This document shows, one piece after another, positions 47,750 to 54,664 of a DNA stretch of 64,000 nt. Made by a program: the position numbers and the translations under genes. A model generated the notes under the pieces. The model searched no databases, had not been told where the DNA came from, and saw nothing but the letters and a program-made list of their open reading frames with translations. Origin of the DNA: an uncultured bacterium (GTDB lineage Bacteria > Bacillota_I > Bacilli_A > RFN20 > CAG-826); assembly GCA_949299165.1 (NCBI GenBank), contig CASFZJ010000002.1:4924-68923 (forward strand). The letters run 5' to 3'. Each line of letters starts with the position of its first letter. Position 1 is the first letter of the stretch.

Positions 47750-48226
47750 TTAATGTCCATAATATCTTTTAACAACTTCGATAAGTTCTTTATCTGTAAT
47801 TTTTTTCGTAATAGTTTTATTAGATTTTTTCAAAATCGAAAACATTTTAATATTGTTTTTTTCAAAAATTTCAAATTCTAAATAAAAATCACCAATTTTT
47901 TCATATTCTAATTGAATGCTATTTCTCGCCGTAGGAAAAATATCTGGCTGTGAATCTAATTTATCAATAATTGTTCTTGCATATTCAACTAATTCTTTTG
48001 AAAATCGTTTGGCTCCATATTGATTCCAATTATCACTTAAACTAGCAATCCTATTTAGCGTTTCATAACTTTGAATCTTACATAAATCAATATTTCTTGT
48101 ATCAAAATTTTGTTTTGGACTATTATCGGTGCCAACAGAATTAGGAATAATATCAATATTATTAAATGAATAAGAAAAGTTGCGATTATTTTTTGAATAA
48201 TCTGATGCTGATAGAATTAGATTCAT
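47750..48226 (-). CDS. Cassette gene B1 (unknown function; paralog of 54648-55130)
   Basis: 158 aa. Shares a conserved block with B2 (NWNQYGAKRFSKELVEYARTIIDKLDSQPDIFPTARNSIQLEYEK...LEFEIFEKN versus NRNGYGAHSFDKKTIQRFLSIINFLEIQPKISPTGRKTLVLAYEK...LSFEIFENK). Its start overlaps the A1 stop (ATGA). Confidence 0.5.
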   Translation of the reverse strand: MNLILSASDYSKNNRNFSYSFNNIDIIPNSVGTDNSPKQNFDTRNIDLCKIQSYETLNRIASLSDNWNQYGAKRFSKELVEYARTIIDKLDSQPDIFPTARNSIQLEYEKIGDFYLEFEIFEKNNIKMFSILKKSNKTITKKITDKELIEVVKRYYGH

Positions 48227-48645
48227 ATCCTTTTTCCTCCTTCAACTGTTATTAATCTTTCGCCAAGTAATTCATCATTAAGATAAATCTTGGTTGAATA
48301 TAAACCACTTTCTTTAAAAAGAATATTTTTAAACTCAAATCTTAAGTTTATGCTAGTTAAGTTTTTATCGTTAATTTCTTCTTTTTTAACTTTAGGAATA
48401 GTAATTTCGCCAGAATTAAATAAAATTTCTTTTGTCCCGAAATCTTGTTGAAAAACAAGTTTTATTTTGTTTTCTTTTTCATTATCAACACCTAAAAGCG
48501 AAAATACGACTGAAAAAGTAATGGCTCCAGGTAAACAATCTGATTTTAAAGCGCACAAAACATTCAATGCATTAATTGCATTAAGGTCACTAGATATTTG
48601 GCTATCTGCACAATAAACAAAGTTTGTTAAAGTTACCATAATCAC
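48223..48645 (-). CDS. Cassette gene A1 (unknown function; paralog of 54218-54664)
   Basis: 140 aa. Shares TLTNFVYCADSQ / TVTNFIFCENSK and NILFKESGLYSTKIYLNDELLGERLI / NILFKKEGECIAKIFFDDELIGEKHI blocks with A2. Confidence 0.5.
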   Translation of the reverse strand: MIMVTLTNFVYCADSQISSDLNAINALNVLCALKSDCLPGAITFSVVFSLLGVDNEKENKIKLVFQQDFGTKEILFNSGEITIPKVKKEEINDKNLTSINLRFEFKNILFKESGLYSTKIYLNDELLGERLITVEGGKRI

Positions 48646-48727
48646 CTCTTGTTTTTATTATAATTTAAAATTAGGTGAACGACTATTGGAGAAAGAGCTG
48701 TCGTTCGTGATCGTTTGTTCATATTCT

Positions 48728-48820
48728 CTAAAGAGCTTCTTGCTTCATAGATGCCACTATTTCAGGTATTTCATCTCCACAAGCTTGAATTCCGGGCATG
48801 ACTTCCGTACTGAATTTAAT
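48728..48820 (-). ncRNA. Orphan IS605 right-end / omega-RNA-like element without an adjacent tnpB
   Basis: About 70% identity over 93 nt to the element abutting the tnpB stop codon at 22476-22579. It includes the shared core AAGCTTGAATTCCGGG...GAC-TCCGTACT-AATTTAAT, has the same relative orientation, and lies directly upstream of cassette gene A1. The ORF-track ORF 48686-48901 overlapping it is probably non-coding. Confidence 0.45.
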
Positions 48821-49057
48821 AGCTGGTTATTTTTGTTATTTTGCTATGTGTATACATACACTTCTTCCGTTTTGTCTCATATAGCTATCATTAATGAGTA
48901 GAAGCAATATTTCGGTGTAGCAGACCTACTTTCCTTAAAATTTAAACTTTAAGTTAAGTCATTTGAAAATACCTCCTCACTTATTACAAAGGAGATTAAA
49001 ATCAAAAACGTTAAAAATATTTTTCAAAAATTAAATTTTCTTCAAATTTCTATGAAA

Positions 49058-49225
49058 TGAAAAACCTAACTTTTTGCAAATTTCTTTATTTTATAAACAT
49101 AGAATTTTGCAAATTTTGCTATTTTGAAAACCTAGAATTTTGCAAATTTTGGTGTTTTAGAAACATAGAATTTTGTAAATTTTCATATTTTTAGAAACTA
49201 AGTTTTTACAAATTTCGAGATTATA
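49058..49225. repeat. Approximately 34-bp tandem repeat array (about 5 units) with a palindromic TTTGCAAA core in each unit (iteron-like)
   Basis: Units such as AAACATAGAATTTTGCAAATTTTGCTATTTTG repeated head-to-tail with progressive degeneration; non-coding, AT-rich. Confidence 0.6.
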
Positions 49226-49652
49226 AATATCATTTTTATGTAAACACTTATTAAATTTATTTTTTTTGCGGATAAGATTAATTAATCACAATTTTTTTAA
49301 ACTTTCTTTCGTTGTATAAAGTAAATCAAACTTTTTAATAAAATATGATCTAGTATAAACGAATTTAAGAATTCAGTAGCAAAAATATAAAGAAATTTTC
49401 TAAAAGAGTTTATCAGTTAATATATGCTTCTTCGTGTGTCAAGAATACAACTAATTTAATTAATATTTTTTTATTTCTAGACTCAGCGTATTGAAGCTTC
49501 AAAAAATATTATTCAAAAAAATAGGAATTTTTTAAAATTAGCGACAAAATTTGAAAAATAATAAAATATGGTATTTCTGCGATGTTTTTTAACTTAAATA
49601 TTAGTTTTTTTATTAATTTTCAAAAAAATTAAATCTTAAATTTCCGGCACTT

Positions 49653-49720
49653 TGTCGCTTTCGTGTCGCTTTCGTGTCGTTTTCGTGTCGTTTTCGTGTC
49701 GCTTTCGTGTCGTTTTCGTT
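49653..49720. repeat. 11-bp tandem repeat array TCGTGTCG(C/T)TT, about 6 units, abutting a promoter -10 element
   Basis: TGTCGCTT then five full units TCGTGTCGCTT/TCGTGTCGTTT, then TCGTT, immediately followed by TGATATAAT. Confidence 0.75.
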
Positions 49721-49728
49721 GATATAAT
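49720..49728 (+). promoter_or_regulatory. Extended -10 promoter element (TGATATAAT) for the downstream Schlafen-like gene
   Basis: TGnTATAAT 33 nt upstream of ATG 49761, the same 9-mer as upstream of tRNA-Thr. Confidence 0.4.
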
Positions 49729-49751
49729 TTCTTTTTTATGCTAAATTAACT

Positions 49752-51080
49752 TTGTGTTTTATGGATTTATTTGAGTCAAACAGAATAGAATTTAAAGCAA
49801 AAATTACTGATCAACTTGTACGTGAGATAGTCGCGTTTTTGAACACTGATGGCGGAAAAATATATATAGGTATTAGCGATGATGGCAAAGTTATTGGTAC
49901 AAAAAATATTGATGAATCGCTTAGAATCATATCTGATATTGTTTGCTCTCAAATTGAACCATCTCCAATAGAATTAGTAAAAAGTGATATTCATTTTTTA
50001 GAGAACCAACCAGTTATTGTGGTTAATGTTGATAAAGGGACTGAATCAATTTATTGTATTAAAAAATATGGTTTTTCAAGTGTAGGCTGCCCAATAAGAG
50101 TTGGATCTACTTGCCGAGAAATGAGTCAAGAGCAAGTTCAATACAGATATAAAATGCGCTATTCTGATGATGATTTGTTAGTTTCATCACCGACAAACTT
50201 ACCTGAACTTTCGTTTGTTACTTTAAAAAATTATTATTCAAATATTGGCCTTAAATTAAATGACGAAAATTTCAAAAACAACCTCAATCTCCTGAACAAA
50301 AAAGGCCAATATAATAAATTAGCAGAATTAGTTTCGGATAATAGTCGCTATTCATTTATCTTTGTTAAGTTTGAAGGAGCAAATAAGGCTTCACTTTCAC
50401 AAAGAAGCAACTATGGAAACAAATCTATATTATTTGCTTATGAACAAATGAAAAATCGAATTGAAGCTGAAAACATCTGCATCTCTGATACAACCACAAG
50501 ACCAAGAATCGATAAATTTCTATATAACATCGAATCTGTTGATGAAGCCATTATCAATGCAATAGTCCACAATGATTGGAGTGTTGGAGAACCACAAGTT
50601 GCTTTTTTTAACAATAGAATTGAGATTATCTCTCATGGTGGTTTACCACATAATTTAACTAAGGAAGAATACTTTGCTGGAATTACAAAACCTAGAAATG
50701 CCGCTTTAATGAAAATATTTTCTGATTTAGATATCGCAGATAATACTGGACATGGCATTCCAACTATTATTGAACATTATGGTAAAGATGTTTTTGATAT
50801 TGAACCAAATCACATTATAATAAGCATTCCGTTTGATAAAGATATACTAGAAAGATTCAAAAGAGAGCATACCGATATAATCAATTTTGATTTGAATGAA
50901 CCAGAAAAGTTGATATTAGAACAACTTTCACTTGACCCAACAACTACTGCACAAAAAATCGCATTAAAACTCAAAAAAAGTCGAAGAACTATCGAGCGTT
51001 ATTTAAAATCCTTACAAGCAAAAGATTATATTGAACGAGTTGGAACCATACGAAATGGTTATTGGAAAATAATAAAGTAA
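49752..51080 (+). CDS. AlbA_2 (Schlafen-like) domain protein with C-terminal histidine-kinase-like ATPase and wHTH (paralog of 26727-28142)
   Basis: N-terminal AFLNTDGGKIYIGISDDGKVIGT AlbA_2 core; C-terminal block paralogous to the first copy. Likely ATG start at 49761. Confidence 0.65.
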   Translation: MCFMDLFESNRIEFKAKITDQLVREIVAFLNTDGGKIYIGISDDGKVIGTKNIDESLRIISDIVCSQIEPSPIELVKSDIHFLENQPVIVVNVDKGTESIYCIKKYGFSSVGCPIRVGSTCREMSQEQVQYRYKMRYSDDDLLVSSPTNLPELSFVTLKNYYSNIGLKLNDENFKNNLNLLNKKGQYNKLAELVSDNSRYSFIFVKFEGANKASLSQRSNYGNKSILFAYEQMKNRIEAENICISDTTTRPRIDKFLYNIESVDEAIINAIVHNDWSVGEPQVAFFNNRIEIISHGGLPHNLTKEEYFAGITKPRNAALMKIFSDLDIADNTGHGIPTIIEHYGKDVFDIEPNHIIISIPFDKDILERFKREHTDIINFDLNEPEKLILEQLSLDPTTTAQKIALKLKKSRRTIERYLKSLQAKDYIERVGTIRNGYWKIIK

Positions 51081-51643
51081 CTAATTATTTAAAAACAAAT
51101 ATCTCTAATATTTAAAACCAATCCAAAATAAATATTAAGTGCCGGCACTTGTTCTTTTTACTTGTTCGCATTAGATTGGTCAAATTCTTCGACATTCTGA
51201 CGCTTCTATATTTTATTTCAGAAATTAGATCAGAGAATAAACAATAAATTCATTCAAAATGTAGCAAGCTATTTTTAAAACAAAATTAATTTGAACAGTT
51301 TAACCGTTTTATATTGCTTTTATCTTTTTGCGATTATAGTCTTTTTTTAACTTCAATTACTTCATCAATTGAAAATAAAATAAATAACTTCGTGCGAAGT
51401 TCGTGCGAACTAATCGTTCTCTTACCTCTTTTGTCATTATCATTTGAAAAATGATATAAAATCACTTGAATATTGAATAATAATAAGCAACAATACGCGA
51501 AAAAAATTGAGTTTTGCAGGGTTTTTACTTTAAATGTAACTAAAAACTTTTACGTCAATATATAAAATTACTTTAATAAAACTTTTCCTTTCTAGTTAAA
51601 ATACTAAGTGCCGGCACAACTTCTCCATCATTTTTCACATCAA

Positions 51644-52933
51644 CTATTTAGACTGGTCATCGTTATTCTTTTCTTCGCCAATCAATCTTACAAGGTCACT
51701 CCTTTTAAGTATTTTATTTTTAACTACTTCATCTGCGATTATACTTAGTACCTTTTTATATTTTCTAAGTCTTCTTTTTACAATGTGATAGGTTTTCATC
51801 ATGAATTTATTTACTCTTTTTGCGTAAGTCTTTTTCTCATATTCACTTATTGACTCACCACGATATCTTAAAGATTTAGGTGCGTGGAAATCGATTGCGT
51901 TTATGTTTACTCCGTTCAGTAAATTAAATGAAGAAGTGTAGGCTTTTTCTAAATCATTAGAACATCCTATATCGTGTTTTTTATAGAAAAGTTCTTCAGC
52001 GACTAATCCTGCAAGTGCTATTTGAATGTCTTCAATCTGATTTTCTCGATTATCCTCAAAAAGATCAGTTGAATAGGTATATCCTCTTTGCTCATAACAT
52101 CTAATTCTAAAAAACTTTTTGCTTCTAGAAAATTTATAAATATATAAGGCGTGTCCTGCTTCATGAAGTGCGATGACTCTAGGCACAACATAGTCTTCTT
52201 TACTTTCAACACATCCCGTATCTAAAAAAGTTAATTCATTAATAAAATCATCAAGTTCTGCCTCTTTACCCTTTTTAAAATAAACCATATTAAAAAGTGT
52301 TTTGATTTTGCTAATTGATGAGCCAGATAAATGTTGTCTTAATTCTTCAATTTCGTCGTCCACTCTTTCAATATTAAAACCTCTATCTTTTAATAAATGC
52401 TTGATGATCTCTTTTAATTCTTTATTATTAAAAACTTTAATTTCATATTTTCGATCAAAACGACCTTCTCTTACTAAAGAATCTGGTAAGTCGTAATAAA
52501 AATTGGCACTAGCGAGTGTTAAAACATTCCCTTCTTTTTTAAATCCATCAAGTTCAGTTTGTAAAACTCTTTCAAGTTTTGTATCGCGCTCTACAAGACG
52601 ATCTACCTCATCAATTATTATAATTGCGCCTTTTTCTTCTTTTTTAGCTTCTTTATAAGTCGAAACTAAAACTTCATCTAAATTTTCTTTATCTCCTTCG
52701 ATAACAAAAATTTTATAGTCAAAAGTTTTAGCGAATTCTCTCATGAGCAAAGTTTTCCCTTGCCCTGGATCGCCATAAAACAAAATTCCATGAGGTAAAA
52801 ATTCTCTTTTATCTTCTTCTAATTCATTATTTAAATACCATCCTAAAATCTCATATAACTCATCTTTAACGCCTTGATATCCATAAACTTTTGATAAAAA
52901 CTCATTTCTTGAATTCATAATTTTTAGCCTCAC
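51644..52933 (-). CDS. Soluble FtsH-like AAA+ ATPase with C-terminal M41-type zinc metalloprotease domain (no transmembrane region)
   Basis: Walker A GDPGQGKT, Walker B IIIIDEVD. HEAGHAL zinc motif and downstream GCSNDLEKAY matching the FtsH peptidase region (HEAGHA... / GASNDIERAT). 429 aa, lacking the FtsH N-terminal TM and periplasmic part. Confidence 0.65.
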   Translation of the reverse strand: MRLKIMNSRNEFLSKVYGYQGVKDELYEILGWYLNNELEEDKREFLPHGILFYGDPGQGKTLLMREFAKTFDYKIFVIEGDKENLDEVLVSTYKEAKKEEKGAIIIIDEVDRLVERDTKLERVLQTELDGFKKEGNVLTLASANFYYDLPDSLVREGRFDRKYEIKVFNNKELKEIIKHLLKDRGFNIERVDDEIEELRQHLSGSSISKIKTLFNMVYFKKGKEAELDDFINELTFLDTGCVESKEDYVVPRVIALHEAGHALYIYKFSRSKKFFRIRCYEQRGYTYSTDLFEDNRENQIEDIQIALAGLVAEELFYKKHDIGCSNDLEKAYTSSFNLLNGVNINAIDFHAPKSLRYRGESISEYEKKTYAKRVNKFMMKTYHIVKRRLRKYKKVLSIIADEVVKNKILKRSDLVRLIGEEKNNDDQSK

Positions 52934-53015: not shown

Positions 53016-54020
53016 CTAACCTTTTAAATAATCTAACAAGATATTTTTAATTTTATCTTTTAAGAAAGATGGAGAAATTACTTTTACTACTTGAAGATAT
53101 TGTAAACACCAAAATAAAATTGCATTTTCATTACCTTTAATATAGGCAAAAATTTCATCATTTTCATTTACGATATAAGAGTTTTCATTAAACCAATCTT
53201 TAACAAATAAAACTGCGTGTTCGTTTTTGAGTTTAATTTTAGCTTCAATTATTTCTCCACCATAAAAATAAATATGGTTATTAATATATTCAGTGATTTC
53301 AAAATCTTTATATTTAGAATCTAGATCTTTTAATGCAGTGTAATATTTATCGCTTTCAATTATTTCAACATCCTTTAAATAATCAATTCGAAAAGTGTTA
53401 AGCGTTTTATAATCAGCTCGATAATTACATAAAAGATAGTATCGTCCTGAATTATTTACGAGGAAATAAGGCGAAACTTTATAAATAAATCCATTCAAGC
53501 GATAAACTTCTTTTCCATATTTATCATAATCAATTACTTTAAAAGCTACTCGCTTTTTGTTTTTAATCGCTTCAAGAAGAAGCGAAATAGTATACATTAT
53601 TTCATTATTTTTAGTTCTAGCAACTTCGCTAGTTTTATAGAGATATGAAGAGTTAAAATTAAAAAGTTCTTTTTCTTTATTTTGTGAAAATGTCGAAGAT
53701 ATCTTTTTAATTAAATTTTTAGCTTCTTTAGCGTTAATACTCCTACTAGAAAATATTGAATCAATTAAATAATTCGCTTCTGTTTCATCAAAAAGACGAG
53801 AAAATAAAGCAACTCCACCTTTTTCTTTCCTAACTAAGTCATAACCTAATTCTTCAAGTAAATTTAAAGAATAAGCGATAGATTTTCTTTCTAACTCAAC
53901 GCCATATAATTCATATATCTTATTAATAATATCTTGTTGAGTTAAAAAATGTTCTTCATCACTATATTTTTCTAAAACTTTAAGAACTAATAATATTGAT
54001 GCTTTTTTGTTTTCGATCAT
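53016..54020 (-). CDS. HTH-WYL-domain transcriptional regulator (BrxR/CapW-like)
   Basis: N-terminal wHTH region, central WYL-like block RYYLLCNYRADYKTLNTFRIDYLKDVEII, about 330 aa as in BrxR-type regulators. Confidence 0.6.
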   Translation of the reverse strand: MIENKKASILLVLKVLEKYSDEEHFLTQQDIINKIYELYGVELERKSIAYSLNLLEELGYDLVRKEKGGVALFSRLFDETEANYLIDSIFSSRSINAKEAKNLIKKISSTFSQNKEKELFNFNSSYLYKTSEVARTKNNEIMYTISLLLEAIKNKKRVAFKVIDYDKYGKEVYRLNGFIYKVSPYFLVNNSGRYYLLCNYRADYKTLNTFRIDYLKDVEIIESDKYYTALKDLDSKYKDFEITEYINNHIYFYGGEIIEAKIKLKNEHAVLFVKDWFNENSYIVNENDEIFAYIKGNENAILFWCLQYLQVVKVISPSFLKDKIKNILLDYLKG

Positions 54021-54217: not shown

Positions 54218-54664
54218 TTGAAAATATGGCCAAAAACAAATAAAATAATTACTAAGGAGACAAAGAAGATTATGGCAACTGTTACAAACTTTATTTTTTG
54301 TGAAAATTCTAAAATCGACGAAAACGGAAATACTTCTGTCGTTAATATTTTAAACTATTTTTCTTTATCAATATTGCCAACTCAATTTACTTTTGATCTC
54401 TATTTTACAGTAGCTAAATTTGAAACAGGCGATCACAAGATAAAATTTATTATGCTTGATAGTGACAATAATATCCTCGCAGAAACTCCTGACATAAATG
54501 TTAAATTATTAAAAACATCCGACACAATTGATGATGTAAATTTTGTTAATTTCACTTTAAATCTTCGAAATATTCTTTTTAAAAAAGAAGGTGAATGCAT
54601 CGCAAAAATATTTTTTGACGATGAACTAATAGGAGAAAAACATATTTATGCGAACAAGAAATGA
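54218..54664 (+). CDS. Cassette gene A2 (unknown function; paralog of 48223-48645)
   Basis: 148 aa; see A1. Overlaps the B2 start by 17 nt. Confidence 0.5.
   Translation: MKIWPKTNKIITKETKKIMATVTNFIFCENSKIDENGNTSVVNILNYFSLSILPTQFTFDLYFTVAKFETGDHKIKFIMLDSDNNILAETPDINVKLLKTSDTIDDVNFVNFTLNLRNILFKKEGECIAKIFFDDELIGEKHIYANKK

Follow-up and report, generated by a model that had tools for sequence, protein, structure and literature searches.

What role does a six-unit tandem repeat play when it abuts the promoter of a gene for a Schlafen-like protein? The repeat lies in a 64-kb stretch of DNA from an uncultured bacterium (64,000 nucleotides with a G+C content of ~29%, hereafter the window). An earlier note on the window had described six 11-bp units with C/T variation at a single position and had proposed that they form either a phased array of regulator-binding sites or a promoter spacer of variable copy number. 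We followed the array through the homologues of the gene, across strains and phyla, and weighed the regulators that could read it.

The array, its promoter and the downstream gene

Tandem Repeats Finder called the array at 49653-49719 with a period of 11 and 6.1 copies (94% matches, score 113) and again with a period of 33 (score 127). Direct reading gave the same picture, confirming the repeat at the position first described. From 5' to 3', the sequence runs CCGGCAC-TT-TGTCGC, five full TTTCGTGTCG(C/T) units, TTTCGT and then TGATATAAT. The sole variable position is indeed the C/T after GTCG, which follows the order C C T T C T. As in other helically phased direct repeats, a short core recurs on one strand, here 11.0 bp apart. 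Only one other array in the 64-kb window scores >100, and all five exact occurrences of the 9-mer TTCGTGTCG in the window fall within it. No pairs of TGTCG boxes spaced at 10-12 or 20-22 bp were found elsewhere in the 64 kb. One isolated inverted box upstream, which reads TGTCGC on the minus strand (49541-49546), stands out as a conserved island amid diverged AT-rich DNA when the window is aligned to an 85% relative (L007). Motifs resembling the CCGGCAC border recur at 51142 and 51611.

Table 1. Positions of the array and associated features in the window
Feature	Position	Strand	Remarks
Isolated inverted box, AGCGACAAAATT on the plus strand	49540..49551	-	~107 bp upstream of the array
CCGGCAC, conserved left border of the array	49644..49650	+	Directly 5' of the first box in L007-L009 as well
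Six TGTCG(C/T) boxes, period 11 bp, putative operator	49653..49719	+	Starts at 49653, 49664, 49675, 49686, 49697 and 49708
Alternative overlapping promoter-like site P2, TTGATA-17 nt-TGcTAAATT	49719..49747	+	9/12 matches; TG before the second hexamer
Extended -10 TGATATAAT of the favoured promoter P1	49720..49728	+	Perfect match; inferred start site near 49735
Gene encoding a prokaryotic Schlafen nuclease-like protein (439 aa) with HATPase_c_4 (GHKL-type) and C-terminal winged HTH	49761..51080	+	Pfam domains
Winged-helix coding region (residues ~380-437; recognition helix 408-420, SRRTIERYLKSLQ), proposed box reader	50898..51071	+	AlphaFold2

The earlier note had also related the array to a dyad in the intergenic region at 51.4 kb. 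The dyad exists, as two copies of TTCGTGCGAAG at 51389-51409, but the proposed kinship was not supported. The TTCGTGCGAA dyad is probably unrelated to the array because the two have only TTCGTG in common, a lineage-specific flank missing from L007, and the dyad lacks the TGTCG core that the gene family conserves.

The array directly adjoins the extended -10 of P1, and the ATG at 49761 follows 33 nt past the last -10 base with no Shine-Dalgarno sequence ahead of it. Direct reading thus confirmed the described end of the array at the extended -10 and its placement in the -35 and upstream region. P1 has no -35 hexamer because a box occupies that position. Measured from the G of GTCG to the T of TATAAT, the distances of the six boxes are 14, 25, 36, 47, 58 and 69 nt. 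The overlapping site P2 is weaker than P1 by consensus, and P1 agrees with the register of the family described below. Another promoter-like site (49205-49233) lies upstream and is directed towards the array.

The gene downstream codes for a protein with an SLFN_AlbA_2 domain (PF04326, E = 4.7e-20), followed by HATPase_c_4 (5e-14) and a winged HTH (wHTH) that matches HTH_24 and HTH_11 (~1e-6) as well as Csa3/CasR-type DNA-binding domains. In an alignment of 20 homologues, the N-terminal E5-x4-E10-x-K12 is invariant. These residues fit the Ex4(E/D)xK catalytic motif of prokaryotic Schlafens (PMC13056530). With the intact motif in PF04326, a fused GHKL/HisKinase-like domain and an HTH at its C terminus, the protein has the Slfn-HisKinase-HTH architecture, the second commonest among prokaryotic Schlafens (19.2% of 5,930 proteins; PMC13056530). 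The experiments in that study covered other classes (Ig-like, DUF262), and the HTH was given no role (PMC13056530). According to the literature, TrlG of Photorhabdus has the same two N-terminal domains and a temperature-restriction phenotype.

The full-length AlphaFold2 model is poor (mean pLDDT 55). Confidence is confined to residues 380-437, which are predicted to fold as a canonical winged helix (pLDDT 83-92). A sequence search of the PDB with the window protein returned only an uncharacterised entry, 3LMM. The identical protein is present in a few metagenome assemblies only, and the closest relatives beyond these (67% identical) come from uncultured Acholeplasmatales and related Bacilli. 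A search of a plasmid collection gave an uninformative match to Mesomycoplasma hyorhinis.

A TGTCG box shared by the gene family

We collected 80 homologue loci, one genome per species, whose proteins are 47-67% identical. They come from Acholeplasmatales, Bacilli, Clostridia, Fusobacterium, Treponema, Bacteroides and Anaerolineae and yielded 68 non-redundant upstream regions, in which enrichment was measured against the flanks. TGTCG was present upstream at least once in 63 of the 68 loci and at least twice in 56, the background frequency being 0.09 per 115 nt; the remaining five loci had no box upstream. TGTCGC was enriched 63-fold, ATGTCG 48-fold and the inverted CGACAA 10.6-fold. Successive boxes are spaced 11-12 bp (59 pairs) or 21 bp (38 pairs) apart, and in nearly all loci they read aTGTCG(G/C). 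The spacers between them vary by lineage (for example, gtgtaaa, gtttgaa and ttttcg). The window boxes depart from this consensus. They have a G where the family has an A before TGTCG, and three of the six continue with a T, a minority base family-wide (20/183).

The boxes also hold a regular position relative to the core promoter. With the best -10 as the anchor, most boxes fall 13/14, 34/35 or 46/47 nt upstream of the T of TATAAT, and the proximal box lies 13/14 nt from the -10 in 35 of the 68 loci, as it does in the window (14 nt). The usual layout comprises distal tandem boxes, one box abutting a TTGAAA or TTGACA -35, one box in the 17-nt spacer and TGnTATAAT. The window array sits on this register, with an extra box filling the -35 position. 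Judged by this comparison of sequences, the array is an element of the whole family that has expanded locally and not an isolated oddity. As is characteristic of operators, the boxes combine a fixed position with respect to the core promoter with a phylogenetic footprint that accompanies the gene across genomes.

The same layout bears on a role at the RNA level, in which the repeats would act within a long 5' leader. The promoter-like site at 49205-49233 that points to the array would produce such a leader, and the copies that relatives carry inside the gene (see below) are necessarily transcribed. However, folding of both strands of the array gave no stable structure (z = 0.16 and 1.21), and Rfam returned no match for the array either at the gathering score or at E<=1. 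Furthermore, most boxes of the family are interleaved with the -35 and -10 and are for that reason not transcribed. We regard a function in RNA as the most improbable of the readings considered here.

Close relatives of the window differ in the number of units. Three loci encode the identical protein behind an identical array (L001-L003). Two others, with proteins 99% identical, have six units in the C/T pattern CCCCTT rather than CCTTCT (L004 and L006), and two with a ~100% identical protein (P0002; L212 and L213) have five units, all T. The 85% relatives (L007-L009) have a truncated ORF, a degraded -10 and four units of TCTCATGTCGC. In a sister clade of Acholeplasmataceae with 91-97% identical proteins, there are 3, 5, 6 or 8 boxes with a 12-bp unit. 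The strain differences comprise whole 11-bp units between almost identical flanks. In addition, the five full units of the window all read GTGTCG while L007 has ATGTCG, which points to concerted evolution of the units. Strains that differ by whole units thus form a natural series of alleles in which the effect of site number on repression could be studied.

These counts support one half of the copy-number idea in the earlier note. It was correct that the unit number varies, since near-identical strains differ (6, 6, 5 and 4 units), but the array does not serve as a variable promoter spacer because the distance from the proximal box to the -10 is fixed. From the aligned strains, the variable appears to be site number and not promoter spacing. 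This also weighs against a hypermutable or structural element that needs no binder, such as a contingency-type repeat or phased T-tracts that give curved, UP-like DNA. Copy-number differences among close strains are a trait of contingency loci, and each unit carries a T3-T4 tract in helical phase. However, contingency repeats have units of 1-7 nt that alter the reading frame or the -35/-10 spacing, whereas the unit here is 11 bp and lies upstream of the -10, where one-turn changes keep the promoter geometry. Moreover, it is the TGTCG core and the spacing between core and -10 that the family conserves, not the T-tracts. We consider an element without a binder to be improbable.

A candidate binder and a proposed autoregulatory circuit

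No neighbour family is common to more than five of the 68 loci when ORFs down to 70 aa are counted, or to more than six of 66 when the limit is lowered to 35 aa for ORFs lying within 1.2 kb. For two 92%-identical genes from different phyla, in an Anaerolineaceae and a Christensenellales genome, the similarity of the upstream DNA begins exactly at the first box. Together, these observations suggest that boxes, promoter and gene move as one unit. As no neighbouring gene is conserved, the binder is most plausibly the protein's own wHTH, the most economical candidate.

In the window, the gene is surrounded by genes for a soluble FtsH-like AAA+/M41 protein, a WYL-domain protein (53016-54020), two DUF6941 proteins and a protein with a weak PDC-M32A match. 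This neighbourhood resembles a defence island, although no neighbour belongs to a known defence system. Regulators of the WYL type govern defence loci elsewhere, and the WYL gene lies 2 kb away. The earlier note had named both the encoded wHTH and this WYL protein as possible readers of a phased array. The first candidate gains from the way TGTCG tracks the gene family across phyla. The second loses, as genes for WYL and FtsH-like proteins occur in the window lineage alone and are missing from the other 60+ box-carrying loci, which represent unrelated contexts in several phyla. Furthermore, WYL regulators, BrxR and CapW among them, typically use inverted repeats. Binding by another regulator, be it the WYL protein or a host global factor, is slightly less probable still than an element without a binder.

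The sequence of the recognition helix is also consistent with a reader encoded by the gene itself. The motif K(S/T)KRT(I/A/V)ER is kept in homologues with TGTCG boxes. In one lineage (L080/L083), the helix has RRTVSR instead of KRTIER, and the boxes read GGCACCGAT (GRCACYGAT) in an unchanged geometry (spacing of 12 and 21 bp; 13-nt offset to the -10). This covariation of helix and box, seen in a single independent lineage, is suggestive.

We also considered replication-origin iterons and sites of recombination or mobility. Five copies of the identical unit TGTCGTTTTCG are found within a phage replisome-organiser-like gene beside DnaB, ERF and Gam (L219/L220), arrays bracket the gene in some homologue loci (L071 and L065) and ~22-bp repeats containing CCGGCAC flank the window gene. 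Against these, the neighbours of the array are Schlafen, FtsH-like, WYL and DUF6941 genes rather than an adjacent or enclosing initiator gene, and Pfam/NCBIfam scans of the neighbours revealed no Rep, DnaD or DnaB. When we looked among contigs encoding the WYL protein for an empty site that lacks the Schlafen cassette, we recovered no contigs beyond those already described. We rejected the phage link suggested by viral scans because scans with permuted units, run as controls, hit the same kind of array (L221-L223); the match is probably a coincidence. A metagenome scan with the left junction CCGGCACTTTGTCG produced 120 loci, all of them chance matches in GC-rich DNA. An origin or mobility site is thus very unlikely, although less so than a role in RNA.

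The reading that we favour, and hold to be probable, is autoregulation: the protein would bind the array as an operator through its own wHTH and repress the gene, and the number of sites expands and contracts by whole units. Points against this reading are the departure of the window boxes from the family consensus, the five loci with no box upstream and the alternative promoter-like sites. Binding, repression and the tuning of expression by unit number are what we infer from the pattern of conservation. Each TGTCG(C/T) box would dock one wHTH, with one box per helical turn on the same strand. Flexible tethering of the wHTH domains would allow the protein to use direct repeats at 11, 12 or 21 bp. 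Association or oligomerisation through the N-terminal domains, which is our conjecture, would make occupancy cooperative. Once occupied, the boxes at -26 and -37 would exclude RNA polymerase because they fill the -35/-10 spacer and the -35 position. The outcome would be negative autoregulation and a low set-point for a potentially toxic defence nuclease. Slippage or unequal exchange would add or remove 11-bp units while all boxes stay on one helix face and the proximal box remains at its fixed distance from the -10.

We next consider the sign of this regulation, which is probably repressive; our confidence is moderate because the window promoter, without a -35, also fits a PhoB-like activating arrangement. 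An own wHTH could bind for another main purpose, such as positive autoregulation, tethering or sequestration of the nuclease, or a storage or threshold array. The boxes of the window take the place of the -35 at 11-bp intervals, as they do in Pho-regulon promoters. Most homologues also carry three to four boxes within the coding sequence, which would be superfluous for simple promoter occlusion. However, most family members have a box in the 17-nt spacer between a good -35 and a good -10, a classical position for a repressor but a poor one for an activator. A main purpose other than repression is therefore unlikely in our assessment, even if it is the strongest of the competing explanations.

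The intragenic boxes were themselves unexpected. In 49 of 66 non-redundant genes, boxes of 12 bp lie within the gene's own coding sequence, ~1.1 kb from the start codon, as three to four copies of AATGTCGGTGTA or AATGTCGGTTTG. They encode an (NVGV)n or (NVGL)n linker between HATPase_c_4 and the wHTH. Codon use in these linkers stands in sharp contrast to that in the remainder of each gene. Val is encoded by GTC at 129 of 131 linker positions versus 15% elsewhere, Gly by GGT at 90% versus 31% and Asn by AAT at 98% versus 72%. This is strong evidence, from sequence comparison, that the linker repeats are constrained at the level of the nucleic acid. Furthermore, the upstream and linker 12-mers of the same locus are identical in 22 of 46 cases and differ by at most one mismatch in 36. 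The window gene has no linker repeat (KREHTDIINFDLNEPEK stands there) and no intragenic TGTCG.

Upstream boxes number 3.5 for genes without linker boxes against 2.4 for genes with them (Mann-Whitney p = 0.024, a statistic that ignores phylogeny), and the Spearman correlation between upstream and intragenic box number is not significant. We take this as no more than a hint of an inverse relation. The period differs as well. The window and L088, which have no copy in the coding sequence, have an 11-bp period, and most other arrays have 12 bp, perhaps because their repeats must remain in frame.

These patterns lead us to a more speculative extension of the autoregulatory model, which we think possible but doubtful. 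The TGTCG box would have a dual use throughout the pSlfn-HisKinase-HTH family, in which a 12-bp AATGTCGGTKTR builds the operator and, in most members, also encodes the linker, so that the protein binds its promoter and its own coding sequence. The sites ~1.1 kb downstream could then support looping, a transcriptional roadblock or the chromosomal tethering of a toxic nuclease, and selection on the DNA would dictate the linker peptide. Lineages without an intragenic array, including the window, would compensate for its loss by upstream expansion, and the number of units (4-6 among strains, 3-8 in the sister clade) would be an evolvable set-point for the defence nuclease. If true, an operator copy in the codons of a linker would show, in an unusual manner, how selection on DNA can shape a peptide.

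Relation to known systems

Prokaryotic Schlafens of the HisKinase-HTH type have the same order of Slfn, GHKL/HisKinase-like and HTH domains as the window protein, an intact Ex4(E/D)xK motif and a location in defence islands, but the study of these proteins mentions neither an operator nor the cis-element described here (PMC13056530). A role for prokaryotic Schlafen nucleases in phage defence was shown only recently. Our survey of the full-text literature, whose coverage was incomplete, retrieved no prior description of an operator for the box, the NVGL repeat, AlbA_2/HATPase_c_4 or COG2865. A TGTCG box in fixed promoter geometry offers a concrete and testable target for the HTH of this class, inherited across phyla, and suggests how a potentially self-toxic nuclease may be kept in check.

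The arrangement has parallels in several well-known systems. Pho boxes are 11-bp direct repeats bound head-to-tail by the winged helices of PhoB, ~10 bp upstream of the -10, where they replace the -35. The window matches them in its 11-bp direct repeats, in the replaced -35 and in the winged-helix reader proposed here. In contrast, PhoB activates transcription and is a response regulator that becomes phosphorylated, whereas the wHTH is fused to Schlafen and GHKL-type domains and the architecture of the family points to repression; Pho boxes number two to four and the window has six. MraZ, at the mra/dcw promoter, is an oligomeric autoregulator that acts on same-strand repeats one helical turn apart and resembles our model in its autoregulation via phased repeats at its own promoter. 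It differs in its AbrB/SpoVT-like fold and fixed repeat number, and we know of no copy-number variation or intragenic copies of MraZ sites. In ParR-parC of plasmid R1, 11-bp direct-repeat arrays flank and overlap the promoter, and their cooperative binding also brings about autoregulation. ParR is, however, a ribbon-helix-helix protein of a partition system, and the Pfam/NCBIfam scans detected neither parM/parR nor parA/parB among the neighbours of the window array, which does not resemble a parC-type centromere in this respect.

Two other systems compare with the intragenic boxes. Phage iterons of the lambda O type are ~11-20 bp repeats inside a gene whose product has an N-terminal winged helix, and the phage replisome-organiser-like genes that our scans recovered (L219-L223) contain 11-bp arrays of this sort. 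Iterons differ in belonging to a replication module, whereas the window array has no replication genes nearby. The lac O2 operator in lacZ and the gal OI operator in galE are second operators in a coding region that are thought to cooperate with the operator at the promoter. They are comparable to the linker arrays in the 49 homologues but are single dyads, whereas the linker boxes are tandem and encode a repeat peptide; the window gene itself lacks such an array. Phased direct-repeat autoregulatory operators are thus already known from PhoB, MraZ and ParR-parC. What the putative operator described here adds is a specific box and geometry for the pSlfn-HisKinase-HTH family, the turnover of operator units at the strain level and the operator copy in linker codons.

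Box units within and around homologue genes

The boxes that form the putative promoter operator of the Schlafen-like gene recur inside the coding sequence of most of its homologues. In 49 of 66, the (NVGV/NVGL)n linker between the HATPase_c_4 and wHTH domains is coded by 12-bp TGTCG box units that are the same as those of the operator. Valine is specified by GTC at 129 of 131 positions in the linker boxes versus 15% elsewhere. The Schlafen-like gene of the window is without this linker repeat. Some homologues have arrays on both sides of the gene (L071 and L065); in L071, eight boxes precede the gene, five are in its linker and about seven follow it.

Features of the window, homologue loci and viral contigs (L numbers) discussed in the text
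Feature	Location	Remark
Linker box units	L012-L091, about +1095 to +1140 from start codon	e.g., L017:4094-4140, L066:4097-4140
Extra box array	L071:4329-4400, L065:4375-4410	directly 3' of stop codon
Non-coding stretch	window 48660-48960	GC-richer
Second tandem array	window 49028-49225	five 33-bp units; larger than operator array
AAAT.TTAA...CCGGCACTT	window 49644-49650	left edge of operator array; related to GTGCCGGCAC stretches
Mini-ORF ATGCTAAATTAA	window 49738-49749	three codons, inside predicted leader of Schlafen-like gene
GC-rich palindrome GTGCCGGCAC	window 51139-51148, 51608-51617	two copies, 469 bp apart
Direct repeat TTCGTGCGAAG x2	window 51389-51409	near-palindrome TTCG..CGAA in each unit
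Island genes around Schlafen-like gene	window 51644-52933 (-), 53016-54020 (-), 48223-48645 (-), 54218-54664 (+)	
Schlafen-like gene of 85% relative	L007:2916-3888	likewise L008, L009
Viral 11-bp tandem arrays	L219:1330-1560 (-), L220:2740-2810	likewise L221-L223
(AATGTCGGTGTA)x4	L216:7095-7142	in 83-aa ORF (…NVGVNVGVNVGVNVGVN…)
3' part of homologue only	viral contig L215:3400-3600	boxes and wHTH coding

Flanks of the window gene and its 85% relative

The operator shares a 1.1-kb intergenic region with an array of 33-bp units (TRF score up to 202), each containing the palindrome TTTGCAAA, and a promoter-like site (49205-49233) follows this second array. The 85% relative L007 has three copies of the unit versus five in the window. 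The non-coding stretch in the table, in which neither an ORF nor an Rfam match was found, is almost identical in L007; it might represent the remains of a decayed gene or an unknown RNA. At about 48962-48985, the minus strand reads GGAGG-N8-ATG with a stop two codons later. The window Schlafen-like gene has no Shine-Dalgarno sequence before it (49729-49763), unlike its neighbours and most homologues, which have GGAGG.

The same gene is apparently undergoing decay in the 85% relative (L007-L009). Its -10 is degraded to TGATGTGCT, its operator has only four units, and the ORF ends after 295 aa, with loss of the HATPase_c_4 and wHTH parts.

Each GTGCCGGCAC palindrome is embedded in a 42-nt stretch, and the two stretches are 74% alike. 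Because a related element borders the operator array on its left, the Schlafen gene is bracketed by similar elements of ~22 bp. The window has 11 copies of CCGGCAC where 0.41 are expected, and all copies other than the two palindromes read on the plus strand.

Similar repeats in viral contigs

The viral 11-bp arrays (L219-L223), presumably origin iterons, sit within a replisome-organiser-like gene (N-terminal wHTH) adjoining DnaB, ERF and Gam. One contains the exact window unit TGTCGTTTTCG five times, a match that controls suggest is probably coincidental. The viral contig L216 (120 kb, 54% G+C) has, in an unrelated context, 12-bp units that are the same as the Schlafen operator and linker units; they might act as a decoy or have arisen by recombination. 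The homologue fragment in L215 is flanked by two large serine recombinase genes; an element may have inserted here at a Schlafen gene's linker repeat.

Downstream repeat and island genes

An extended -10-like sequence, TGATATAAAAT, lies ~45 nt 3' of the TTCGTGCGAAG repeat and is directed at the palindrome at 51608. This region might constitute a small transcription unit that runs antisense to the FtsH-like gene at its end. The island products are an FtsH-like AAA+/M41 protease, a WYL regulator and two DUF6941 paralogues, and the island around the Schlafen-like gene may be an undescribed defence module. The protease is soluble, without a membrane part, and has weak similarity to IetA/IteA.
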